Source: Escherichia coli
GTDB lineage: Bacteria > Pseudomonadota > Gammaproteobacteria > Enterobacterales > Enterobacteriaceae
Strand: one strand, 5' to 3'
Assembly: GCF_044324785.1 (NCBI RefSeq)
Contig: NZ_CP172127.1
DNA length: 64,000 bases
Notes under the pieces: model-generated
What the model saw: only the letters and a program-made list of their open reading frames with translations
Databases searched by the model: none
What the model was told of the DNA's origin: nothing
Position numbers and translations under genes: made by a program
Shown here: positions 19,462 to 32,315 of the stretch, piece by piece
Position numbering within the stretch: position 1 is the first letter of the stretch
How the letters are laid out: each line of letters opens with the position of its first letter

Positions 19462-22400
19462 ATGAGTGAAGGACCAGGCGGGCCACAGGGAGCGACCGCA
19501 GGCGGTACGCTGGCAATGCGAATGCTGTCACAGCAGGCGATGGTCGCCAGCCAGATGAAACGGGCAGCCAACGACAAAGCCATTGCACAGATGTTGGCAT
19601 CAAAAAAGTCTGGCCCCCCCGCCGCCAGGCTGGGCGATGAAATTCAGCACAAGAGTTTTTTGGGGGCGCTGGCAGGGGCCGTGCTGGGGGCGATAGTGAC
19701 CATCGCAGAAGGTTGCCTGATTATCGCCGCCTGTGCCACCGGCCCTTATGCGCTGGTTCTGGTGCCTGCGCTGATGTATGCCAGCTATAAGGCGAGTGAT
19801 TATGTGGAGGAGAAACAGAACCAGCTTGAATCCTGGATAAACAGCTTTTGTGACAAGGACGGGGCCATCAATACTGGTTCTAAAAATGTAAACATTAACG
19901 GAAAGCCCGCTGCCAGGGCCGCCGTCACACTTCCCCCTCCTCCCCTGACTGAAGCAATACCCTCTCCACCACAGGGGGAACCTTCATGGGGGGATATTGC
20001 CACTGACCTGCTTGAATCGGCAGCGGAAAAAGCAGTGCCACTGGCGAAGGCCTGGGGGAACGCTGTTATCACCCTGACGGACAGCAATGCCAGTTTTATG
20101 GATCGCTTATGTGCAGGCACATCGCTTCTGTTTCCCTACGGCCCGGTATTAATGGAGTTTGCCACCATGGTGGGCGGGCGTGGCGAAATCAAAAAAGACG
20201 TGGATTTCCCGGAAGCCGGTGAAGACACGGCGCTCTGCGACAAGGAGACTAAACCGCCGAGGATAGCCCAGGGCAGCAGCAACGTCTTCATCAACAATCA
20301 GCCTGCCGCGCGCAAGGGCGACAAACTGGAGTGCAGCGCGGCAATCGTGGAAGGTTCGCCGGACGTCTTTATTGGGGGTGAGCAGGTCACCTATCTGGAT
20401 ATCCAGCCGGAGTTCCCGCCGTGGCAGAGAATGATCCTGGGGGGAATAACGATAGCCAGCTATCTTCTGCCGCCAGCGGGACTGCTGGGAAAAATGAAGA
20501 ATCTGGCGAGACTCGGCAAACTGGGAAACCTGCTGGGGAAAAGCGGGAAGCTGCTGGGCGCAAAACTCGGCGCATTGCTGAGCAGAACAAAAAATGCCCT
20601 GAAAAATACGTATAACGTCCTGAAAAAGTTTATCAAAGATCCGGTTGACCCGGTAACCGGCGCGTACTGCGACGAACGTACCGACTTCACCCTGGGCCAG
20701 ACCCTCCCCCTCTCCTTCACCCGTTTCCACAGTTCTGTACTGCCACTGCATGGCCTGACGGGCGTGGGCTGGAGCGACTCCTGGAGCGAATACGCCTGGG
20801 TGCGTGAACAGGGAAACCGGGTGGATATCATCAGCCAGGGAGCCACGCTGTACTTTGCCTTCGACGGAGACAGTGATACGGCGGTTAACCCGTATCACGC
20901 CCAGTATATCCTGCGCCGCCGCGACGATTACCTGGAGCTGTTCGACCGTGATGCCCTGAGCAGCCGCTTCTTTTATGACGCCTTTCCGGGAATGCGCCTG
21001 CGCCACCAGGTGACCGGCGATACCAATGATGACCGCCTGGCACACAGCCCCGGTGACCGGATGTACATGCTGGGCGGAATGAGTGACACCGCCAGCAACC
21101 GCATCACGTTTGAGCGCGACAGTCAGTACCGGATCACGGGTGTCAGTCACACCGACGGGATCCGGCTTAAACTGACGTACCACGCCAGCGGCTACCTGAA
21201 AGCCATTCACCGCACGGATAACGGCATACAGACGCTGGCGACCTACGAACAGGACGAACGGGGACGGCTGACAGAAGCGGATGCGCGGCTGGACTACCAC
21301 CTGTTTTATGAGTACGACGATGCGGACCGGATCATCCGCTGGTCCGATAACGACCAGACGTGGAGCCGTTTCACCTACGATGCACAGGGCCGGTGCGTGA
21401 CCGTCACCGGGGCGGAAGGCTATTACAACGCCACGCTGGACTATGGTGACGGCTGCACTTCCGTGACGGACGGCAAGGGCATTCACCGTTATTACTATGA
21501 TCCTGACGGCAATATCCTGCGGGAAGACGCGCCGGACGGCAGTACCACCACGTATGAATGGGATGAATTCCATCACCTGCTGGCCCGCCACTCCCCTGCC
21601 GGACGGGTGGAGAAATTTGAATACAACGCCGTACACGGTCAGTTAAGCCGTTACACGGCGGCAGACGGCGCGGTGTGGCAGTACCGCTATGATGAGCGCG
21701 GCCTGCTCAGCAACATCACCGACCCTGCCGGGCAGACGTGGACACAGCAGTGTGATGAACGCGGCCTGCCGGTAAGTCTGGTGTCGCCACAGGGCGAAGA
21801 GACCCGGCTGGCGTACACGCCACAGGGGCTGCTGTCGGGGATATTCCGCCAGGATGAACGGCGTCTGGGCATAGAGTACGACCACCACAACCGGCCGGAA
21901 ACACTCACCGACGTGATGGGCCGTGAACACCACACCGAATACAGCGGTCACGACCTGCCGGTGAAGATGCGCGGCCCCGGCGGTCAGTCAGTGCGGTTAC
22001 AGTGGCAGCAGCACCATAAACTGAGTGGCCTTGAGCGGGCAGGAACCGGCGCGGAAGGATTCCGCTACGACCGCCACGGCAACCTGCTGGCGTACACGGA
22101 CGGTAACGGCGTTGTCTGGACAATGGAATACGGCCCGTTCGATTTGCCGGTGGCGCGAACGGACGGTGAAGGCCACCGCTGGCAGTACCGCTACGATAAA
22201 GACACGCTGCAACTGACAGAAGTCATCAATCCGCAGGGTGAGTCATACCGTTATATTCTCGACAACTGTGGCCGGGTGACGGAAGAGCGTGACTGGGGCG
22301 GCGTGGTCTGGCGTTACCGCTATGACGCCGATGGCCTGTGTACCGCCAGGGTTAACGGCCTGGAGGAAACTATCCTCTACAGCCGGGACGCCGCAGGCCG

Positions 22401-24324
22401 CCTGGCAGAAGTCATCACCCCGGAAGGCAAAACGCAGTATGCGTATGACAAATCCGGCAGGCTGACGGGTATCTTCAGCCCGGACGGCACATCACAGCGC
22501 ACCGGCTACGACGAACGCGGGCGGGTGAATGTCACCACTCAGGGCAGACGGGCCATTGAGTACCACCACCCCGATGAACACACCGTTATCCGCTGTATCC
22601 TGCCACCGGAAGATGAACGCGACAGACACCCCGGTGAATCCCTGCTGAAAACCACCTACCGCTACAACGCCGCCGGAGAACTGACGGAGGTTATCCTGCC
22701 GGGGGATGAGACGCTGACGTTCAGCCGTGATGAGGCAGGACGTGAAGTGCTCCGGCACAGTAACCGGGGTTTTGCCTGTGAACAGGGCTGGAATGCAGCC
22801 GGTCAGCTTACCAGCCAGCGCGCCGGATTTTTCCCGGCGGAAGCCACATGGGGCGGACTGCTCCCCTCACTGGTGCGGGAGTACCGTTACGACAGCGCGG
22901 GCAATGTGTCGGCTGTCACCAGCCGGGAAGACTACGGACGGGAAACACGGCGGGAGTACCGGCTGGACCGGAACGGCCAGGTCACAACGGTGACAGCCTC
23001 AGGCACCGGGCTGGGCTATGGCGAAGGCGACGAGACTTATGGCTATGACAGCTGCGGCTACCTGAAGGCGCAGTCTGCGGGCAGGCACCGGATAAGTGAA
23101 GAGACTGACCAGTATGCCGGAGGCCACCGGCTGAAACAGGCCGGAAACACGCAGTATGACTATGACGCCGCAGGCCGGATGGTCAGCCGCACCAGACACC
23201 GTGACGGCTACCGCCCGGAAACAGAGCGGTTCCGGTGGGACAGCCGGGACCAGCTGACCGGGTATTGCAGCGCACAGGGGGAGCAGTGGGAATACCGCCA
23301 CGACGCCAGCGGCAGGCGGACGGAAAAACGCTGCGACCGGAAGAAAATCCGTTTTACGTACCTGTGGGACGGCGACAATATTGCGGAAATCCGGGAATAC
23401 CGCGATGATAAACTGTACAGCGTACGGCACCTGGTGTTTAACGGCTTTGAGCTGGTAAGCCAGCAGTGCAGCCGGGTACGGCAGGCGCATCCGTCCGTGG
23501 CCCCGCAGTGGGTGACGCGAACGAATTATGCGGTGAGCGACCTGACAGGCCGCCCGCTGATGCTCTTTAACAGTGAAGGTAAAACCGTCTGGCGGCCGGG
23601 ACAGACCAGCCTGTGGGGGCTGGCACTCAGCCTGCCCGCAGACACCGGCTACCCGGACCCGCGCGGGGAACTGGACCCGGAAGCCCCCCCCGGCCTGCTG
23701 TATGCGGGACAGTGGCAGGATACGGAATCGGGGCTGTGCTATAACCGGTTCCGGTATTACGAGCCGGAAACCGGAATGTACCTGGTGAGTGATCCGCTGG
23801 GGTTGCAGGGAGGTGAGCAGACTTACCGGTATGTGCCTAATCCTTGTGGGTATGTTGATCCGCTGGGGCTGGCAAAAACCAGTATTATAAAATCTTCTAC
23901 AGGCAAAATCCCACAAGGGTTAACAAAAAGCGAATTTGAGATTTTTTCAAAAAAATTAAAGGATGTATTAGCCCGAGAGGGAATCTCGACAGAGAATGTG
24001 TTTGTACATGGCAGTAGAGCCAGAGGAGATGCTGTATCAGGTGTTTCAGATATTGATATAAAAGTGATCCTTAGTGATAAAGATTTTGGTGCCTTTGCAG
24101 CAAGACGTATTGCTGAGTCCTCAGGAAGGACTCGAAATTTAATCAGGAAGGCCGTTGCTAAAAATCAAAAAATAAATTCAAGAGGAATTTCTAAAACTTT
24201 TGAATCTACTGTATGGGATGAGGTTTTCACTACCTTACCAAAAGGTGAGTTTTCAAGCATTCAAGTTTCTGTTATGACCAAAACTTCACCATTCAACACT
24301 AATCCGAGTATTATATTACCATGA
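19462..24324 (+). CDS. prePAAR/PAAR-Rhs T6SS effector with C-terminal nucleotidyltransferase-like toxin domain
   Basis: 1620 codons. Features in order: prePAAR-like AARLGDEIQH (19621-19650), hydrophobic helices, PAAR motifs (GKPAARA; NQPAARKGD), numerous YD repeats, and the core end DPLGLQGGEQTYRYVPNPCGYVDPLGL (ends 23871). An AT-rich 150-codon CT follows, containing HGSRARGDAVSGVSDIDIKV. Confidence 0.93.
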   Translation: MSEGPGGPQGATAGGTLAMRMLSQQAMVASQMKRAANDKAIAQMLASKKSGPPAARLGDEIQHKSFLGALAGAVLGAIVTIAEGCLIIAACATGPYALVLVPALMYASYKASDYVEEKQNQLESWINSFCDKDGAINTGSKNVNINGKPAARAAVTLPPPPLTEAIPSPPQGEPSWGDIATDLLESAAEKAVPLAKAWGNAVITLTDSNASFMDRLCAGTSLLFPYGPVLMEFATMVGGRGEIKKDVDFPEAGEDTALCDKETKPPRIAQGSSNVFINNQPAARKGDKLECSAAIVEGSPDVFIGGEQVTYLDIQPEFPPWQRMILGGITIASYLLPPAGLLGKMKNLARLGKLGNLLGKSGKLLGAKLGALLSRTKNALKNTYNVLKKFIKDPVDPVTGAYCDERTDFTLGQTLPLSFTRFHSSVLPLHGLTGVGWSDSWSEYAWVREQGNRVDIISQGATLYFAFDGDSDTAVNPYHAQYILRRRDDYLELFDRDALSSRFFYDAFPGMRLRHQVTGDTNDDRLAHSPGDRMYMLGGMSDTASNRITFERDSQYRITGVSHTDGIRLKLTYHASGYLKAIHRTDNGIQTLATYEQDERGRLTEADARLDYHLFYEYDDADRIIRWSDNDQTWSRFTYDAQGRCVTVTGAEGYYNATLDYGDGCTSVTDGKGIHRYYYDPDGNILREDAPDGSTTTYEWDEFHHLLARHSPAGRVEKFEYNAVHGQLSRYTAADGAVWQYRYDERGLLSNITDPAGQTWTQQCDERGLPVSLVSPQGEETRLAYTPQGLLSGIFRQDERRLGIEYDHHNRPETLTDVMGREHHTEYSGHDLPVKMRGPGGQSVRLQWQQHHKLSGLERAGTGAEGFRYDRHGNLLAYTDGNGVVWTMEYGPFDLPVARTDGEGHRWQYRYDKDTLQLTEVINPQGESYRYILDNCGRVTEERDWGGVVWRYRYDADGLCTARVNGLEETILYSRDAAGRLAEVITPEGKTQYAYDKSGRLTGIFSPDGTSQRTGYDERGRVNVTTQGRRAIEYHHPDEHTVIRCILPPEDERDRHPGESLLKTTYRYNAAGELTEVILPGDETLTFSRDEAGREVLRHSNRGFACEQGWNAAGQLTSQRAGFFPAEATWGGLLPSLVREYRYDSAGNVSAVTSREDYGRETRREYRLDRNGQVTTVTASGTGLGYGEGDETYGYDSCGYLKAQSAGRHRISEETDQYAGGHRLKQAGNTQYDYDAAGRMVSRTRHRDGYRPETERFRWDSRDQLTGYCSAQGEQWEYRHDASGRRTEKRCDRKKIRFTYLWDGDNIAEIREYRDDKLYSVRHLVFNGFELVSQQCSRVRQAHPSVAPQWVTRTNYAVSDLTGRPLMLFNSEGKTVWRPGQTSLWGLALSLPADTGYPDPRGELDPEAPPGLLYAGQWQDTESGLCYNRFRYYEPETGMYLVSDPLGLQGGEQTYRYVPNPCGYVDPLGLAKTSIIKSSTGKIPQGLTKSEFEIFSKKLKDVLAREGISTENVFVHGSRARGDAVSGVSDIDIKVILSDKDFGAFAARRIAESSGRTRNLIRKAVAKNQKINSRGISKTFESTVWDEVFTTLPKGEFSSIQVSVMTKTSPFNTNPSIILP
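21559..23844 (+). repeat. rhs core direct repeat, copy A (within the full-length rhs)
   Basis: Aligns with 27298-29583 at a constant offset of 5739 nt. The first ~80 nt are diverged and the rest is near-identical by eye. Confidence 0.9.
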
Positions 24325-24671
24325 AGAAAAAAGATATTAGATTTGCAATATCCATTAACTCCAACTTAAGTAAGATAGAATTAATGGAAAAAATTAAAAA
24401 TATAATCCCAGGGCTTATTGAAATAACTTCCAGTGCATTAAGAGAAGAAAAAAACATGGTAGTTATTGAAGAAAATGATCTTTATGACCCTATAAAAGCA
24501 GAGGGAGCTGATGGATGGATGTATTATAAATTCATATTATCCATATTCCCATTAAAGGGAGTGGAAACAACATTAGAATATCAACGGGAATTATCTTTTC
24601 TTTTCTTAAAGAAAATAAAAGATGCGGGCCTGTTGGGTGAACTTATATGCGAGGATGATTTTCATGACTGA
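24321..24671 (+). CDS. Presumptive cognate immunity protein of the Rhs NTase-like CT
   Basis: 116-codon AT-rich ORF whose ATG overlaps the rhs stop (ATGA), the usual Rhs CT/immunity arrangement. I recognise no motif in it. Confidence 0.7.
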   Translation: MKKKDIRFAISINSNLSKIELMEKIKNIIPGLIEITSSALREEKNMVVIEENDLYDPIKAEGADGWMYYKFILSIFPLKGVETTLEYQRELSFLFLKKIKDAGLLGELICEDDFHD

Positions 24672-24730
24672 TGACCTCTACATATATCCTCAGTTCGTGG
24701 CTGGTATTACATGATCTGACAGGGAAAGAT

Positions 24731-24880
24731 CGTGGCGAAATCAAAAAAGACGTGGATTTCCCGGAAGCCGGTGAGGACACGGCGCTCTGCGACAAGGAGA
24801 ACAAACCACCGAGGATAGCCCAGGGCAGCAGCAACGTCTTCATCAACAATCAGCCTGCCGCACGCAAAGGGGACAAACTG
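24731..24880 (+). pseudogene. 150-bp fragment of an rhs PAAR region
   Basis: Matches 20179-20328 of the main rhs (RGEIKKDVDFPEAGEDTALCDKE[N/T]KPPRIAQGSSNVFINNQPAARKGDKL). It is truncated on both sides and abuts the ISEc1 left end. Confidence 0.85.
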
Positions 24881-26171
24881 CAGGGAAAGATCACGTAACG
24901 CTGCTTTTTTGTACTAAATAATTCGCATTTTATGTTTAAAAATTGAGATATTCCTCATTACCTAAAGCTGTTTTTTATTGCTTATACATGATCAAATACT
25001 CCTTACATAATTAAGGAGAACAAAATGGAACTTAAAAAATTGATGGAACATATTTCTGTTATCCCCGATTACAGACAAGCATGGAAAGTAGAACATAAAT
25101 TGTCAGATATTCTACTGTTGACTATTTGCGCCGTCATTTGTGGTGCAGAAGGCTGGGAAGATATAGAGGATTTTGGTGAAACACATCTCGATTTTTTGAA
25201 GCAATATGGTGATTTTGAAAATGGTATTCCTGTCCACGATACCATTGCCAGAGTTGTATCCTGTATCAGTCCTGCAAAATTTCACGAGTGCTTTATTAAC
25301 TGGATGCGAGATTGCCATACTTCAGATGATAAAGACGTTATTGCAATCGATGGAAAAACACTCCGGCATTCTTATGACAAGAGTCGCCGCAGGGGAGCGA
25401 TTCATGTCATTAGTGCGTTCTCAACAATGCACAGTCTGGTCATCGGACAGATCAGGACGGATGAGAAATCTAATGAGATTACAGCTATCCCAGAACTTCT
25501 TAACATGCTGGATATTAAAGGAAAAATCATCACAACTGATGCGATGGGTTGCCAGAAAGATATTGCAGAGAAGATACAAAAACAGGGCGGTGATTATTTA
25601 TTCGCTGTAAAAGGAAATCAGGGGCGGCTTAATAAAGCCTTTGAGGAAAAATTCCCACTGAAAGAATTAAATAATCCAGAGCATGATAGTTACGCAATTA
25701 GTGAAAAGAGTCACGGCAGAGAAGAAATCCGACTTCATATTGTTTGCGATGTCCCTGATGAACTTATTGATTTCACGTTTGAATGGAAAGGGCTGAAGAA
25801 ATTATGCATAGCAGTCTCCTTTCGCTCAATAATAGCAGAGCAAAAGAAAGAGCCAGAAATGACGGTCAGATATTATATCAGTTCTGCTGATTTAAACACA
25901 GAAAAGTTCGCCACAGCAATCCGAAACCACTGGCACGTGGAGAATAAGCTGCACTGGCGTCTGGATGTGGTAATGAATGAAGACGACTGCAAAATAAGAA
26001 GAGGAAATGCAGCAGAATTATTTTCAGGGATACGGCACATCGCTATTAATATTTTGACGAATGATAAGGTATTCAAGGCAGGGTTAAGACGTAAGATACG
26101 AAAAGCAGCTATGGACAGAAACTACATGGCGTCAGTCCTTGCGGGGAGCGGGCTTTCGTAATCTTTCCCTG
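24881..26171 (+). mobile_element. ISEc1 (H-repeat, ISAs1 family), copy 1
   Basis: Imperfect terminal inverted repeats: cagggaaagatcacgtaacg on the left, and ...cgtaatctttccctg on the right. The element encloses the H-repeat-associated transposase ORF. Confidence 0.88.
25025..26161 (+). CDS. ISAs1-family (H-repeat-associated, YhhI-like) transposase
   Basis: 378 aa, [37 protein letters not shown]..., recognisable as the E. coli Rhs-associated H-rpt protein. AAGGAG SD upstream. Confidence 0.9.
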
Positions 26172-26396
26172 GACATGACGATTATTGTTCGTTCAAATCC
26201 GAGTAAAGCCGCTATTCTTGAAGAATTTTTACATGGTACACAAGAGAAACTAGGAATAGCTGAAAAATTAGGACGTTATGGACTAGGGAGTGCAGAAACG
26301 CACGTTAAGGATTTCATGATAAGACACAAAAAAATGCTTGGGTTATCTGATGAGGATGTAGCAATACTCAAAATATTGAAAGACAAGGGGTTGTGA
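26172..26396 (+). pseudogene. C-terminal stub of an orphan polymorphic-toxin CT, truncated by ISEc1
   Basis: The open frame starts exactly at the IS right end (…DMTIIVRSNPSKAAILEEFLHGTQEKLG…KDKGL). Its stop overlaps the next ATG (TGATG), as in toxin/immunity pairs. Confidence 0.55.
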
Positions 26397-26683
26397 TGAA
26401 TATAATTCTGCCGATAAAAGATATATTTATTATTGCGGGAAACATAGTTTTTAGCGTTTTATACAATGAACATATTGAGTTCCCATGCCGCTGCCAATTA
26501 CTATCTTCAAATTCTGAAGTTATGCAAGAGTTATATATTGAAAAAGAGTTATTTATTAAACGCACTACAGAAAATGATTGTCGTGCTTTAGTGTTAAGAG
26601 GAACATTGGAATACTTATTTGATGAAATTATTGCTGGCGATTGTGCATTGGCCTTATTACAAAAAGAAATAAAAAAAGATTAA
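26396..26683 (+). CDS. Presumptive orphan immunity protein 2
   Basis: 95-codon AT-rich ORF overlapping the upstream stub's stop by 1 nt. No recognisable motif. Confidence 0.55.
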   Translation: MNIILPIKDIFIIAGNIVFSVLYNEHIEFPCRCQLLSSNSEVMQELYIEKELFIKRTTENDCRALVLRGTLEYLFDEIIAGDCALALLQKEIKKD

Positions 26684-26699
26684 TCCAATATGTAGAACT

Positions 26700-26905
26700 G
26701 GACAATACCCATCTTTTAACAATGAACTTCGTAATTTTTATCTTAGAAATAATGCTACATTATATGAGGTATATCATGAAGTAATTCATGCCAAGCAATT
26801 TGCGAAAATATTTCTATCGGAGGTGCTGATGCACCATCTAATATGAGACTTATGGATATAATGACACATACAACTCATCATAAATATTACAGGCCTTGGG
26901 AATGA
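26700..26905 (+). pseudogene. Decayed orphan toxin CT with HExxH (zinc-metallopeptidase-like) motif
   Basis: One frame reads ...NELRNFYLRNNATLYEVYHEVIHAKQFAKI... and stops at 26844. Another frame, open from 26780, continues ...GGADAPSNMRLMDIMTHTTHHKYYRPWE* to 26905. This is consistent with a 1-nt frameshift near the A-run at ~26804. There is no rhs core upstream. Confidence 0.6.
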
Positions 26906-27264
26906 TAAATAAAATAGTGAAAAAAATGTTGGTTTCATATAGCCCTAAGAAACCGGAGTCTAGGGGCGGGGATTTTGTTATTCCGTTGTTTTTTAATGAG
27001 AAAGTTTCTTTTTTTAGCATAAAAAGTGGCAAGCCAGTGCGATATGGTCTTATGGTATTTACAGGGAAAGTAATTACCATAGATGATATTCTTAGTAAAG
27101 TTCGTTTTCCTGATGTTATGAATGAGCAAAATATTCAACCGTTAATTGACTTTATTAATAACATTAGCGATTTTAAAATAGGGGATGTTATTGAAATTGA
27201 TGATAATGGTAAATTGAAAGTTGTGCCAAAATCAGCAGGACACCCTGTGAGTAAATTGCCATGA
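26902..27264 (+). CDS. Presumptive orphan immunity protein 3
   Basis: 120-codon ORF from the ATG at 26902, overlapping the stub stop as ATGA. AT-rich, with no recognisable motif. Confidence 0.55.
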   Translation: MINKIVKKMLVSYSPKKPESRGGDFVIPLFFNEKVSFFSIKSGKPVRYGLMVFTGKVITIDDILSKVRFPDVMNEQNIQPLIDFINNISDFKIGDVIEIDDNGKLKVVPKSAGHPVSKLP

Positions 27265-27297
27265 TACTTAAGGGGCCTGATTTTCTGTTTTTGCCAG

Positions 27298-29583
27298 TGG
27301 GACGAATACCATCACCTGCTGGCGAGGCTGTCTCCGGCAGGACGGCTGGAAAAGTTTGACTATCATCTGACACTCGGTCAGTTAAGCCGTTACACGGCGG
27401 CAGACGGCGCGGAGTGGCAGTACCGCTATGATGAGCGCGGCCTGCTCAGCAACATCACCGACCCTGCCGGGCAGACGTGGACACAGCAGTGCGATGAACG
27501 CGGCCTGCCGGTGAGTCTGGTGTCGCCACAGGGCGAAGAGACCCGGCTGGCGTACACCGCTCAGGGGCTGCTGTCGGGGATATTCCGCCAGGATGAACGG
27601 CGTCTGGGCATAGAGTACGACCACCACAACCGGCCGGAAACACTCACCGACGTGATGGGCCGTGAACACCACACCGAATACAGCGGTCACGACCTGCCGG
27701 TGAAGATGCGCGGCCCCGGCGGTCAGTCAGTGCGCTTACAGTGGCAGCAGCACCATAAACTGAGCGGCATTGAACGTGCTGGAACCGGCGCGGAAGGATT
27801 TCGCTATGACCGCCACGGCAACCTGCTGGCCTGGACGGACGGCAACGGTGTTGACTGGACAATGGAATACGGCCCGTTTGATTTGCCGGTGGCGCGAACG
27901 GACGGTGAAGGCCACCGCTGGCAGTACCGCTACGATAAAGACACGCTGCAACTGACAGAAGTCATCAATCCGCAGGGCGAGTCATACCGTTATATTCTCG
28001 ACAACTGTGGGCGGGTGACGGAAGAGCATGACTGGGGCGGCGTGGTCTGGCGTTACCGCTATGACGCCGATGGTCTGTGTACCGCCAGGGTTAACGGCCT
28101 GGAGGAAACCATCCTCTACAGCCGGGACGCCGCAGGCCGCCTGGCAGAAGTCATCACCCCGGAAGGGAAAACGCAGTATGCGTATGACAAATCCGGCAGG
28201 CTGACGGGTATCTTCAGCCCGGACGGCACATCACAGCGCACCGGCTACGACGAACGCGGGCGGGTGAATGTCACCACTCAGGGCCGACGGGCCATTGAAT
28301 ACCACCACCCCGATGAACACACCGTCATCCGCTGTATCCTGCCACCGGAAGATGAACGCGACAGACACCCCGGTGAATCCCTGCTGAAAACCACCTACCG
28401 CTACAACGCCGCCGGAGAACTGACGGAGGTTATCCTGCCGGGGGATGAGACGCTGACGTTCAGCCGTGATGAGGCAGGACGTGAAGTGCTCCGGCACAGT
28501 AACCGGGGTTTTGCCTGTGAACAGGGCTGGAATGCAGCCGGTCAGCTTACCAGCCAGCGCGCCGGATTTTTCCCGGCGGAAGCCACATGGGGCGGACTGC
28601 TCCCCTCACTGGTGCGGGAGTACCGTTACGACAGCGCGGGCAATGTGTCGGCTGTCACCAGCCGGGAAGACTACGGACGGGAAACACGGCGGGAGTACCG
28701 GCTGGACCGGAACGGCCAGGTCACAACGGTGACAGCCTCAGGCACCGGGCTGGGCTATGGCGAAGGCGACGAGACTTATGGCTATGACAGCTGCGGCTAC
28801 CTGAAGGCGCAGTCTGCGGGCAGGCACCGGATAAGTGAAGAGACTGACCAGTATGCCGGAGGCCACCGGCTGAAACAGGCCGGAAACACGCAGTATGACT
28901 ATGACGCCGCAGGCCGGATGGTCAGCCGCACCAGACACCGTGACGGCTACCGCCCGGAAACAGAGCGGTTCCGGTGGGACAGCCGGGACCAGCTGACCGG
29001 GTATTGCAGCGCACAGGGGGAGCAGTGGGAATACCGCCACGACGCCAGCGGCAGGCGGACGGAAAAACGCTGCGACCGGAAGAAAATCCGTTTTACGTAC
29101 CTGTGGGACGGCGACAATATTGCGGAAATCCGGGAATACCGCGATGATAAACTGTACAGCGTACGGCACCTGGTGTTTAACGGCTTTGAGCTGGTAAGCC
29201 AGCAGTGCAGCCGGGTACGGCAGGCGCATCCGTCCGTGGCCCCGCAGTGGGTGACGCGAACGAATTATGCGGTGAGCGACCTGACAGGCCGCCCGCTGAT
29301 GCTCTTTAACAGTGAAGGTAAAACCGTCTGGCGGCCGGGACAGACCAGCCTGTGGGGGCTGGCACTCAGCCTGCCCGCAGACACCGACTACCCGGACCCG
29401 CGCGGGGAGCTGGACCCGGAAGCCGACCCCGGCCTGCTGTATGCAGGACAGTGGCAGGATACGGAATCAGGGCTGTGCTATAACCGGTTCCGGTACTACG
29501 AGCCGGAAACCGGAATGTACCTGGTGAGTGATCCGCTGGGGTTGCAGGGGGGTGAGCAGACTTACCGGTATGTGCCGAATCCT
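27298..29583 (+). repeat. rhs core direct repeat, copy B (orphan)
   Basis: See copy A. The offset is 5739 nt, and homology ends at the codon after the shared ...VPNP. Confidence 0.9.
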
Positions 29584-30051
29584 TTAAGATATAAAGATTT
29601 CTATGGGCTTAGTAAGAGTTCAATAATAACGAGAGGAAAGAATGCTGGTCATGGCTATGCAGCCAGCGTTACACCTGGAGGCAAAGGTACGGTGTTGGCT
29701 GGTCACGGAGGATCAAAATTTGGCGATAAAATGATTATACCAGAAGGCGTATCGATAACGATGCCGAGAGATGGTATTAAAATATCAGATATGACTGGAA
29801 AATTACTGGAATCTGGTAATGTGGATGATATAATTAAAGCTGCAAGTAATAATCCTCGTGTAGCTAGCGATCTTGAAGGTTGGGTTACTTATTTGCCCGG
29901 CACTGAAATCCCTGATTATATTTTAAAACCACCCACCAATCTTAACATACTGGAAAATTCAGTAACGGTGAACACTTCAACTTATTTATCTCAAATGGTA
30001 AATGCTGGTCAAGGTAATGTAATCTGGGCTGCATGCACCGAATTTTTTTAA
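27298..30051 (+). pseudogene. Orphan 5'-truncated rhs core with an intact alternative CT toxin domain
   Basis: The frame is open stop-to-stop from 27265 with no plausible start or N-terminal PAAR region. 27298-29583 parallels the main rhs core. It diverges after ...YRYVPNP into a distinct AT-rich 155-codon CT (LRYKDFYGLSKSSIITRGKNAGHGY...VIWAACTEFF). Confidence 0.85.
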
Positions 30052-30065
30052 CGCGGGGTAATCGT

Positions 30066-30548
30066 ATGTATTTTAAAGATGATACTGACTATACATATTT
30101 CCTTCCTAATGAATATTTTTTACACGGGGTGAAAAATGTGGGCTGGATAGACAGAGAACACCCCTTCACAAAAGGGATTAGTGACGCTGAATTTATTGAA
30201 AAGTTAAAAGCAATAATTCTAACAGAGAATGAAGCAACTTGTTTTTCAGTTAATAAAATAAGAGGATTTCACAAATGTAATTTTTGCAATAGTGAAATGA
30301 TAACAATAACCGATGGAAGAAAAAAAGGATACCTTGGCATGAGTGAAATATGGATTCCATCCATCCACCATAATGAGTATTACGCGTTTCCTTCATTAAT
30401 TTTCCATTATATAACATCTCACATGTATAGACCACCAGAGGACTTTATTGTATCTGTTTTAAACTTGAATTTAAGCGAGAGTTTTTGCGCTCAAAACATA
30501 TATGACAATAAAATTAAGGAATTAAAAATAGACTTCTGGTTTCGTTAA
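30066..30548 (+). CDS. Presumptive immunity protein of the orphan Rhs CT
   Basis: 160-codon AT-rich ORF from the ATG at 30066, 15 nt after the orphan rhs stop. It contains HKCNFCNSE. The annotated start at 30033 would overlap the toxin end and was not used. Confidence 0.6.
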   Translation: MYFKDDTDYTYFLPNEYFLHGVKNVGWIDREHPFTKGISDAEFIEKLKAIILTENEATCFSVNKIRGFHKCNFCNSEMITITDGRKKGYLGMSEIWIPSIHHNEYYAFPSLIFHYITSHMYRPPEDFIVSVLNLNLSESFCAQNIYDNKIKELKIDFWFR

Positions 30549-30568
30549 AGCTGGTAATTTAACTTATC

Positions 30569-30665
30569 GGGAATACCGCTATGATGGCAGTTTCAGACGG
30601 ACGGAGAAATGCTGTCAGCAAAAAGACTTCCGCTTCGCGTATCTGTGGGGCATGGGGATAATTTA
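30569..30665 (+). pseudogene. Diverged rhs core scrap
   Basis: Reads (W)EYRYDGSFRRTEKCCQQKDFRFAYLWG, paralleling WEYRHDASGRRTEKRCDRKKIRFTYLWDG of the main rhs (around 23286-23385) but clearly more diverged. Confidence 0.6.
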
Positions 30666-30732
30666 TCTTCATCAATTGATATATTGATTAATGGCAAGGA
30701 GGCCATTGAAATTCCGTAAGGCCAACTTGATA

Positions 30733-30914
30733 TGACGCCTGGCACACAGCCCCGGTGACCGGATGTATATGCTGGGCGGGATGAGCGACACCGCCAGCAA
30801 CCGCATCACGTTTGAGCGCGACAGCCAGTACCGGATCACGGGTGTCAGTCACACCGACGGGATCCGGCTTAAACTGACGTACCACGCCAGCGGCTACCTG
30901 AAAGCCATTCACCG
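30733..30914 (+). pseudogene. rhs core fragment (N-proximal part of the core) truncated by an IS end
   Basis: Matches 21036-21217 of the main rhs (LAHSPGDRMYMLGGMSDTASNRITFERDSQYRITGVSHTDGIRLKLTYHASGYLKAIHR). It ends at an H-repeat left terminus. Confidence 0.8.
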
Positions 30915-31023
30915 CAGGGAAAGATCACGTAACGCTGCTTTTTTGTACTAAGCAATTCGCATTTTATGTTCAGTATTTGAGATACTCCTTATAACACAAA
31001 CCTGTTTTTCATAGCTTATATAT
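30915..31023 (+). mobile_element. Solo, diverged H-repeat/ISEc1 left-end fragment
   Basis: Starts with cagggaaagatcacgtaacgctgcttttttgtacta, like the IS left end, then diverges from the canonical copy. It is cut off by the next complete copy. Confidence 0.7.
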
Positions 31024-32315
31024 GTAGGAAAAGATCACGTAACGCTCCTTTTTTGTACTAAATAATTCGCATTTTATGTTTAAAAATTGAGATATTCCTC
31101 ATTACCTAAAGCTGTTTTTTATTGCTTACACATGATCAAATACTCCTTACATAATTAAGGATAACAAAATGTAACTTAAAAAATTGATGGAACATATTTC
31201 TATTATCCCCGATTACAGACAAGCCTGGAAAGTGGAACATAAATTATCGGATATTCTACTGTTGACTATTTGTGCCGTTATTTCGGGTGCAGAAGGTTGG
31301 GAAGATATAGAGGATTTTGGGGAAACACATCTCGATTTTTTAAAACAATATGGTGATTTTGAAAATGGTATTCCTGTTCACGATACCATTGCCAGAGTTG
31401 TATCCTGTATCAGCCCTGCAAAATTTCACGAGTGCTTTATTAACTGGATGCGAGATTGCCATACTTCAGATGATAAAGACGTCATCGCAATTGATGGAAA
31501 AACACTCCGGCATTCTTATGGCAAGAGTCGCCGCAGGGGAGCGATTCATGTCATTAGTGCGTTCTCAACAATGCACAGTCTGGTCATCGGACAGATCAGG
31601 ACGGATGAGAAATCCAATGAAATTACAGCTATCCCTGAACTTCTTAACATGCTGGATATTAAAGGAAAAATCATCACAACTGATGCAATGGGTTGCCAGA
31701 AAGATATTGCAGAGAAGATACAAAAACAGGGCGGTGATTATTTATTCGCTGTAAAAGGAAATCAGGGGCGGCTTAATAAAGCCTTTGAGGAAAAATTTCC
31801 ACTGAAAGAATTAAATAATCCAGAGCATGACAGTTACGCCATTAGTGAAAAGAGTCACGACAGAGAAGAAATCCGTCTTCATATTGTTTGCGATGTCCCT
31901 GATGAACTTATTGATTTCACGTTTGAATGGAAAGGACTGAAGAAATTATGCGTGGCAGTCTCCTTTCGGTCAATAATAGCAGAACAAAAGAAAGAGCCAG
32001 AAATGACGGTCAGATATTATATCAGTTCTGCTGATTTAACCGCAGAGAAGTTCGCCACAGCAATCCGAAACCACTGGCACGTGGAGAATAAGCTGCACTG
32101 GCGTCTGGACGTGGTAATGAATGAAGACGACTGCAAAATAAGAAGAGGAAATGCAGCAGAATTATTTTCAGGGATACGGCACATCGCTATTAATATTTTG
32201 ACGAATGATAAGGTATTCAAGGCAGGGTTAAGACGTAAGATGCGAAAAGCAGCCATGGACAGAAACTATCTCGCGTCAGTCCTTGCTGGGAGCGGGCTTT
32301 CGTAATCTTTCCCTG
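31024..32315 (+). mobile_element. ISEc1 (H-repeat, ISAs1 family), copy 2
   Basis: The left end taggaaaagatcacgtaacg has 2 mismatches to copy 1. The right end ...cgtaatctttccctg finishes at 32315. Same length class as copy 1. Confidence 0.85.
31187..32305 (+). CDS. ISAs1-family transposase, copy 2, N-terminally compromised
   Basis: The canonical start has ATG-TAA (31169-31174) where copy 1 has ATG-GAA, and the SD is AAGGAT rather than AAGGAG. The frame is otherwise intact from the internal ATG at 31187 ([15 protein letters not shown]...). Confidence 0.6.

Follow-up and report, generated by a model that had tools for sequence, protein, structure and literature searches.

The question raised by this locus is what an rhs gene copy without a beginning encodes at its 3′ end, and how it could be deployed. 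The copy lies in a 64,000-nucleotide stretch of Escherichia coli DNA (here called the window; RefSeq assembly GCF_044324785.1, contig NZ_CP172127.1), where positions 29,584 to 30,548 hold its C-terminal domain (CT) and a small gene that follows. An initial annotation, made from the letters of the window, took the two for a CT of unknown fold and a candidate immunity gene. The sequence observations behind it were confirmed, and most of its interpretation was upheld. Our data indicate that the CT belongs to the Stv family and the downstream protein to the DUF7919 family, and that the region is very likely an orphan toxin-immunity cassette. As read from the sequence, the cassette consists of a 2.3-kb Rhs core fragment, the Stv CT and the DUF7919 gene, and it is situated in an rhs locus linked to a type VI secretion system (T6SS). 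The best explanation of the whole, and a probable one, is a silent orphan Rhs toxin-immunity cassette with a His/Cys toxin that acts in the cytoplasm. The features are as follows:

27298 to 29583, + strand: orphan 5′-truncated Rhs core fragment (BLASTN against the main rhs gene; translation)
21559 to 23845, + strand: stretch of the main rhs gene homologous to the orphan core (BLASTN), the candidate recombination partner
29530 to 29610, + strand: predicted Rhs C-terminal autoproteolysis region, with DPLGL (29530-29544), 17 residues, and DFYGL (29596-29610)
29584 to 30051, + strand: putative toxin CT of the Stv family (PF21527; Pfam match), 155 codons plus a stop, folded from about residue 17 to residue 155 (29632-30048)
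30066 to 30548, + strand: DUF7919 gene (PF25535; Pfam match), 160 amino acids, with C71-x2-C74 (30276-30287) and H114-x4-H119 (30405-30422)

The CT matched the Pfam model of Stv with an E value of 7.1e-13 and 49.8 bits (gathering cut-off 24.2) over profile positions 2-121 of 121, and the downstream protein matched DUF7919 with an E value of 3.5e-34 and 118.2 bits (gathering cut-off 27). As profile comparisons, both matches are far beyond chance. The Pfam Stv model starts at residue 36 of the CT, whereas the conserved and confidently folded domain in the window begins at about residue 17 and includes the motif GHGYA. No match to either protein was found in NCBIfam, PADLOC or PHROGs, so that a curated name, a known defence system and a phage family are ruled out. 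The description of a CT of unknown fold therefore holds in that no solved structure was matched, but the family itself is already catalogued. The profile hidden Markov model (HMM) search that had been suggested as a check did recover a known family, but one that is biochemically uncharacterised and considered a toxin by in-silico prediction only.

De Silva et al. defined Stv from a gene of a 2.7-kb Shigella plasmid and considered it, from in-silico prediction, a probable toxin with a His-Cys pair like that of caspases or the cysteine protease domain (CPD) of other toxins (bioRxiv 10.1101/2022.08.23.504947). In the same preprint, Rhs, DUF6861 and Peptidase_C80-containing proteins were seen to end in this domain, and there is no mention of immunity proteins or DUF7919 (0 occurrences of 'immunity'). 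This preprint was the sole literature found on PF21527 and DUF6861, and none was found on DUF7919. The founding Stv is a stand-alone plasmid gene for which no immunity gene is reported, in contrast to the E. coli CT, which is borne on Rhs and accompanied by DUF7919; it was too distant to be detected among plasmids by tblastn with the window CT as the query.

The open reading frame (ORF) at 27511-30051 (+ strand) forms the open portion of a longer stretch with Rhs homology. Positions 27298-29584 aligned by BLASTN to 21559-23845 of the main rhs gene (19462-24324, + strand, 1620 amino acids) with 97.4% identity over 2289 nt. The homology ends exactly at 29584, directly 3′ of a Pro codon, and not one codon past ...YRYVPNP, where the divergence had been placed previously. 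The ORF ends in ...GGEQTYRYVPNPLRYKDFYGLSKSSIITRGKNAGHGYAASVTPGGKGTVLAGHGG...NVIWAACTEFF and a stop codon, while the main gene reads YRYVPNPCGYVDPLGLAKTS at the equivalent point; after the shared VPNP the main gene continues with CGYVDPLGL-AKTS and the orphan with LRYKDFYGL-SKSS. In the upstream direction the first stop codon met in the orphan frame is the TGA at 27262-27264, with which the small ORF before it ends. Back to that point the frame lacks an ATG, a PAAR domain and an N-terminal region, and Rhs homology begins at about 27298, so that translation and BLASTN agree with the earlier description of a gene without a start codon or PAAR. The GC content decreases from 62% in the orphan core to 38.7% in the CT, which bears out the claim of a distinct, AT-rich domain of 155 residues, and to 31.3% in the downstream ORF. 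The CT and immunity frames (155 and 160 codons) are open in the window, as had been reported. Since its core is truncated at the 5′ end and has a full-length rhs homologue in the same locus, the fragment is an orphan rhs module.

This arrangement is similar to that of the orphan rhs modules of Salmonella Typhimurium LT2, in which a full rhs gene is followed by a core fragment that has neither initiation nor export signals (PMC3967940; PMC7043789). The LT2 orphans also have a linked immunity gene of their own, and their core homology permits recombination with the main gene. They differ from the present cassette in their toxin and immunity families, and in the E. coli window ISAs1 copies and several orphan remnants are located between the main and orphan genes. 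Recombination-driven deployment of the Salmonella orphan has been shown experimentally (PMC3967940). A close relative of the window, E. coli strain N3, is 99.9% identical to it over 29400-30700 and 99.2% identical over 26000-31200; it is not the same sequence. The locus order in N3 is vgrG, a gene for a DcrB-related (Eag-type) chaperone, rhs, orphan remnants with two ISAs1 copies, and nrfB-nfrA.

The assignment of the two genes as a pair was tested locus by locus, starting from Stv proteins and from DUF7919 proteins. Of the 14 loci with DUF7919 that were examined outside the window, 13 had a complete or remnant Stv directly upstream of it, and from the Stv side DUF7919 was immediately downstream in all loci examined (7/7). 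The loci in which the two were found together are:

Superficieibacter (L004): Stv followed by DUF7919
Salmonella (L005): Stv followed by DUF7919
metagenomic Rhs protein of 1405 amino acids (L007): Stv followed by DUF7919
CdiA orphan array (L008): Stv followed by DUF7919
DUF6861-Stv effector (L009): Stv followed by DUF7919, the partial ORF being confirmed by eye and by HMM
Rhs protein of 3827 amino acids (L010): Stv followed by DUF7919
Rhs protein of 2500 amino acids (L011): Stv followed by DUF7919
two Ralstonia megaplasmids: Stv adjacent to and upstream of DUF7919
Streptomyces, from the DUF7919 side: the gene follows a gene for a type VII secretion system (T7SS) Rhs protein that ends in Stv
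Pseudomonas flavescens, from the DUF7919 side: CdiA orphan array, the gene standing just after a 3′ Stv stub
E. coli N3, NCTC11023 and 14EC047: the cassette, whole or as a stub

Because of this adjacency, and because the carriers include Rhs, CdiA, DUF6861 and T7SS-Rhs proteins, gene order identifies Stv and DUF7919 as a predicted toxin-immunity pair, which upholds the earlier view of the 160-residue ORF as the likely immunity gene. The solitary DUF7919 gene was on a Blastocatellia contig (L014 3001-3402), beside genes for a sensor kinase and a SpoIIE phosphatase and without a toxin in the vicinity. This gene may be a stray immunity gene, or else it may hint that the family has a second role. 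In one protein of 517 amino acids (P0075), encoded by one ORF, a partial Stv is followed by positions 1-50 of DUF7919; it is probably a frameshifted or fused toxin-immunity read-through. A small SymE_toxin-family gene on the opposite strand recurs in the Rhs/CdiA orphan arrays of Superficieibacter, Salmonella and Pseudomonas (L004, L005 and L012), where its distance from the Stv/DUF7919 cassette, in the upstream direction, ranges from a few hundred bases to 2.3 kb.

Stv carriers were surveyed by a profile search of 1.84 billion representative proteins, which gave 523 Stv clusters at 50% identity (E<=1e-3). In a sample of 153 proteins, made up of the best 150 profile hits and the hits of the first search, Stv was the extreme C-terminus of its carriers, with a median tail of 1 residue; the window ORF ends 4 residues after Cys151. 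The carriers consisted of CdiA-type proteins (DUF637 with haemagglutinin repeats, Fil_haemagg_2), Rhs proteins of up to 3827 amino acids, DUF6861 effectors, proteins with PT-HINT/PT-TG pre-toxin modules, and a Streptomyces protein that combines T7SS_signal with Rhs. This range of carriers is the signature of a polymorphic-toxin tip. A full-length Rhs bearing a close relative of the window CT was not found in a word-indexed search of 5.8 billion protein clusters, which is a search of limited sensitivity, and a collection-wide genome scan with a narrow alignment returned the Superficieibacter locus only.

The start of the DUF7919 gene is 14 nt, and not 15 nt, from the CT, since the CT stop codon (TAA) is at 30049-30051 and the ATG is at 30066. 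An in-frame ATG at 30033 would yield a protein of 171 amino acids, but the start at 30066 is favoured because homologues begin at the methionine of MYF.... Structure model and alignment of DUF7919 were based on database homologues. In 67 sequences D5, G26, W27, C71, H114, H119, Y121, P123 and P124 are invariant and C74 is near-invariant (at least 90%), and the resulting C-x2-C...H-x4-H pattern is a plausible zinc site. The family comprises 1605 clusters at 90% identity. The AlphaFold2 (AF2) model of the protein is confident (predicted local distance difference test, pLDDT, 95.5), and it had no significant match to the PDB by predicted fold, phmmer or profile hmmsearch. RefSeq calls the gene 3′ of the CT either 'hypothetical protein' or 'DUF7919 family protein'. 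A sequence scan detected no transmembrane, signal-peptide or hydrophobic segment in the Stv CT or in DUF7919, a result that points to a cytoplasmic site of action for both. Promoter-like sites between 29400 and 30800 were at chance level (4 found, 4.6 expected in shuffled sequence), as was the result of a terminator scan around the cassette.

Conservation was counted over 92 full-length Stv domains that were aligned to the window CT. The two proposed catalytic residues are encoded at:

29704 to 29706, + strand: His41, codon CAC, in AGHG; proposed catalytic base, invariant (92/92)
30034 to 30036, + strand: Cys151, codon TGC, in WAAC; proposed nucleophile (89/92)

The residues next to His41 are G40 (91/92) and G42 (92/92). 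S126 and G144 were also found in all 92 domains, followed by P53 (90/92), G33, G55 and E76 (89/92 each), G32 (88/92) and D69 (81/92). Cys151 is the sole Cys in the 146-residue domain whose release is predicted. Because His41 is present in every domain and Cys151 in nearly all, a His/Cys enzyme is the best reading, and on this conservation we lean towards His/Cys catalysis by the Stv CT; proteolysis specifically is a more doubtful proposal. The initial annotation had suggested a His/Cys enzyme from a repeated GHG and the WAAC motif. The second GHG and WAAC carry that suggestion, whereas the first GHG does not, its His23 being found in just 51 of the 92 domains.

The AF2 model of Stv, built on 42 family sequences, had a pLDDT of 91 and a predicted template modelling (TM) score of 0.82, with residues 1-16 disordered. 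It predicts six short strands, three helices (69-97) and six more strands, and places His41 directly after strand 37-39 and Cys151 directly after strand 144-149. A Foldseek search with this model against 350,542 chains gave a best E value of 2.3 at a TM score of 0.14, and nothing significant was found in PDB sequences by phmmer or by hmmsearch with the family profile. The suggested structure prediction thus yielded a confident model, yet one with no match among solved structures.

In clan CD peptidases a hydrophobic strand is followed by HG and a later hydrophobic strand by AC, so that His comes before Cys, and the two are separated by about 26-55 residues with one helix between them. TVLAGHG (strand 37-39) and NVIWAAC (strand 144-149) fit this motif layout, and the resemblance was also remarked in bioRxiv 10.1101/2022.08.23.504947. 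Stv therefore shares with the caspases and the CPD/Peptidase_C80 domains of MARTX and clostridial toxins the order of His before Cys and the strand-GHG and strand-AC motifs. It differs from them in the spacing of 110 residues, in the nine strands and three helices predicted between the two residues, and in that the model has no beta-alpha-beta alternation. The initial annotation had considered a spacing of about 120 residues to be unlike clan CD; the measured value is lower, and the conclusion agrees with the fold and profile tests, which fail for the clan. The alpha/beta/alpha sandwich of the caspase type (caspase/CPD/gingipain) was not found in the model. In Pfam searches with the CT and 42 family members no Peptidase_C14, C80, C13, C25 or CHAT match was obtained at E<=1, and there was no PDB hit. 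Polymorphic toxins whose last domain is a version of Tox-Caspase are known (Zhang et al. 2012, PMC3482391), from a survey that has no entry for a GHG, AGH or WAAC motif. Stv has been described to co-occur with Peptidase_C80 (bioRxiv 10.1101/2022.08.23.504947), and among our Stv search hits no tandem Peptidase_C80-Stv proteins were found.

Other enzyme classes were not supported either. The papain-like fold (Cpe1/Tox-PL), in which a Cys at the N-terminus of a helix precedes the His and then an Asp/Asn, and the 3C-like fold (His40/Glu71/Cys147 spacing) are out because the Cys is too near the C-terminus: it is the sole Cys, follows the His, and is 4 residues from the end. There was no fold match for the former, and the 3C-like, clan CE/YopJ, sortase, LRAT-like and L,D-transpeptidase folds had no support from the fold search. 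For ADP-ribosyltransferases and NADases no sequence match was found in Pfam, NCBIfam or the PDB, and the sole NADase row in Foldseek had an E value of 8.2 and a TM score of 0.21. The best experimental model for how Stv might act, by analogy, is Cpe1-Cpi1, in which a papain-like cysteine protease toxin delivered by T6SS or contact-dependent inhibition systems cleaves GyrB and ParE (PMC12136450). The likeness proposed is that of a cytoplasm-acting interbacterial thiol enzyme which is carried on Rhs, PAAR, VgrG or CdiA proteins and has a dedicated immunity protein.

The boundary between core and CT bears on release of the toxin. In Pseudomonas protegens RhsA, C-terminal cleavage follows PxxxxDPxG[W/L/F] and requires D1324 and D1346, which are 22 residues apart (PMC8765631). 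In the orphan the second motif is PLRYKDFYGL, compared with PCGYVDPLGL in the main gene; the Pro after the Asp is replaced by Phe, while the P, D, G and L are kept. The distance from Asp to Asp is 22 residues both in the orphan, DPLGL-(17)-DFYGL, and in the main gene, DPLGL-(17)-DPLGL, and the predicted cut is after the Leu, between 29610 and 29611. The close relatives retain the Pro (CGWVDPLGL-SKSS in Superficieibacter and CGWVDPFGL-SKTS in Salmonella). The earlier description of the second motif as degenerate is therefore correct with respect to the Pro, but both catalytic-type Asp residues, their spacing and the G-L are intact. Because these two Asp residues, which are catalytic in RhsA, are kept at equal spacing together with the G-L, autoproteolysis would be expected to persist, by analogy with RhsA, the degeneracy being at one non-catalytic position.

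The following mechanism is proposed. The toxin would not be exportable as it stands because the start codon, the PAAR domain and the N-terminal region are absent. If the 97%-identical core recombined with the main rhs gene, as the Salmonella orphan precedent (PMC3967940) suggests, Stv would replace the nucleotidyltransferase-like tip of that gene and become deployable. On the full Rhs protein, the Asp pair in DPLGL-(17)-DFYGL would cut after the Leu and free a domain of 146 residues and 15 kDa inside the Rhs cocoon, which the T6SS would deliver into the cytoplasm of a neighbouring cell. There Stv may act as a thiol enzyme with Cys151 as the nucleophile and His41 as the general base, and with Ser126, Glu76 and Asp69 as further candidate active-site residues. 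The most probable activity would be hydrolysis of a peptide or amide bond in an essential target that is conserved across bacteria. DUF7919, which is probably zinc-binding and would be located in the cytoplasm, would most likely neutralise the toxin by direct 1:1 binding.

In the E. coli population the two genes have had different histories. The DUF7919 gene was present in 58 of 5426 complete E. coli genomes, in 57 of them at an identity of at least 99%. The 5′ 377 nt of the CT were found in strain N3 only, and among the complete E. coli genomes searched N3 and the window hold the sole intact copies of the cassette. In the two other genomes examined, 14EC047 and NCTC11023, a 1.66-kb deletion joins the core at about 28300 to the CT at 29956, so that the toxin is reduced to its last 32 codons. 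The DUF7919 gene remains, whole in 14EC047 and broken into two pieces in NCTC11023. The other top genome matches also start at query position 29956. Outside E. coli, the Superficieibacter copy of Stv is frameshifted and the Salmonella copy (L005) is cut by an insertion sequence. In both 14EC047 (L003 5732-6593) and Pseudomonas flavescens (L012 2872-3456) the last 30-40 or so Stv codons are kept and an intact DUF7919 gene comes next. The outcome of stub plus immunity gene has arisen independently in two genera, and the retained stub might carry signals for expression of the immunity gene or mark where deletions are tolerated.

This pattern is the basis of an alternative in which the locus is an immunity island, where DUF7919 guards against the Stv toxins of other strains and the toxin fragment is decaying and is never deployed. 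The absence of a whole toxin domain from 57 of the 58 immunity-bearing genomes, the 1.66-kb deletion in the two examined, the stub in P. flavescens, the degenerate boundary motif and the disabled state of the examined Enterobacterales relatives (Superficieibacter and Salmonella L005; Salmonella P0001, with 143 amino acids on a 2.3-kb contig, was left out) are consistent with it, but the 155-codon domain of the window is intact with all family-invariant residues present, and 2.3 kb of recombination-proficient homology has been kept. We regard the alternative as possible, though doubtful; it concerns the present use of the cassette and not its identity, and so is compatible with the orphan-cassette explanation. 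It could also be that the cassette functions within the producer, the orphan being expressed internally as one half of a type II toxin-antitoxin pair. In Salmonella, the main and orphan rhs genes were shown to have promoters within them and to give toxic internal products (PMC7043789), and toxin and immunity genes are just 14 nt apart here. However, promoter-like sites did not exceed the shuffled expectation, no internal start codon has homologue support, and the sole annotated internal ORF, in N3, starts after His41. Such expression is less likely than the recombination route and, taken by itself, quite improbable.

Two further alternatives concern the activity of Stv. It may be a toxin but not a thiol hydrolase, with the His, Cys and Ser and the GGxGxAxAGHG segment binding a nucleotide, NAD or a metal in a transferase or nuclease. 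This would agree with a fold that matches no protease, with the conserved glycine-rich segment just before His41, with the absence of the Cys from 3 of the 92 domains, and with the recently characterised Rhs tips, many of which are ADP-ribosyltransferases or NADases. It is nevertheless unlikely, given that no HMM or fold match to ADP-ribosyltransferase, NADase or nuclease families was found and that strand-HG followed by strand-(A)C is the arrangement seen in clan CD peptidases. The other alternative is that Stv serves virulence as an adhesin or by binding fimbriae. The RefSeq/NCBI name would imply this, since the 3′ two-thirds of the CT are named 'putative adhesin' in N3, and an AlphaFold interaction screen predicted FimF and FimA as partners of Stv (bioRxiv 10.1101/2022.08.23.504947). 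The same preprint traces the adhesin label to an unvalidated annotation transfer from a Bordetella protein; moreover, Rhs, CdiA and T7SS toxins carry Stv as their C-terminal cargo, and Stv is paired with a dedicated gene for a cytoplasmic partner, which makes an adhesin extremely improbable.

Several points weigh against the explanation of the locus as a silent cassette for a His/Cys toxin. No experiment on any Stv or DUF7919 protein was found in the literature, and Stv has no structural link to any enzyme class; the spatial closeness of His41 and Cys151 is an assumption. The founding Stv is a plasmid copy without an immunity gene, which is odd for an enzyme that is toxic to its own cell. The change from Pro to Phe at the boundary, absent from the close relatives, could impair processing. 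Finally, with the whole toxin domain in just 1 of 5426 genomes, selection may act on the immunity gene only.

The neighbourhood of the cassette contains further rhs sequences. The main rhs gene is intact in the window, while the annotation of N3 gives it as frameshifted. Its tip has a low GC content (35.8%) and a weak nucleotidyltransferase match (NTP_transf_2, E 1.8e-6; Polbeta, E 2.3e-5), and a 116-residue ORF with no Pfam match on its 3′ side (region 19462-24671) is presumably its immunity gene; this toxin of the nucleotidyltransferase type may merit separate study. A 75-residue ORF at 24671-24898 contains a PAAR motif (E 1.3e-7) and repeats part of the N-terminus of the main Rhs (GEIKKDVDFPEAGEDTALCDKE.KPPRIAQGSSNVFINNQPAARKGDKL), and represents a 5′ rhs fragment that has been displaced to a position immediately ahead of an ISAs1 copy. 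Two near-identical ISAs1/H-repeat transposase genes, at 25025-26161 (378 amino acids) and 31184-32305 (373 amino acids), flank the orphan region and could mediate rearrangements between strains. Between the first of them and the Stv orphan, 26139-27264 holds three small low-GC ORFs of 85, 96 and 122 amino acids with no Pfam match. Because the N3 annotation places a fragment of a zincin-like metallopeptidase toxin in the equivalent region, these ORFs probably represent immunity genes left behind by older orphan cassettes. The DUF7919 stop codon is followed directly by a divergent Rhs-core-like fragment at 30550-30687 (AGNLTYREYRYDGSFRRTEKCCQQKDFRFAYLWGMG; main gene EYRHDASGRRTEKRCDRKKIRFTYLWDGD), and then at 30763-30951 by a second core fragment, whose sequence occurs unchanged in the main gene (MYMLGGMSDTASNRITFERD...). 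Both accompany the immunity gene in other genomes, and the block 29956-30920 is conserved.

Orphan Rhs cassettes are ordinary and both families are already in Pfam, so the value of the locus is in the Stv family, a widespread toxin tip that has a misleading 'putative adhesin' label in RefSeq and is statistically linked to successful Shigella lineages. Tentatively, Stv and DUF7919 might be two folds not seen before that form one widespread system of type V (CdiA), type VI (Rhs, DUF6861) and type VII (actinobacterial Rhs) secretion, in which the toxin, a His/Cys enzyme of a new class, would have reached a clan-CD-style layout independently and the immunity protein would be a new zinc-binding inhibitor. 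For E. coli itself, the distribution among genomes illustrates cleanly how immunity is retained once the toxin is lost. For the family, what is new is a dedicated DUF7919 partner for Stv across Rhs, CdiA and T7SS carriers and the naming of candidate catalytic residues, which turn a vague annotation into a specific and cheaply testable hypothesis of a toxin-immunity pair.

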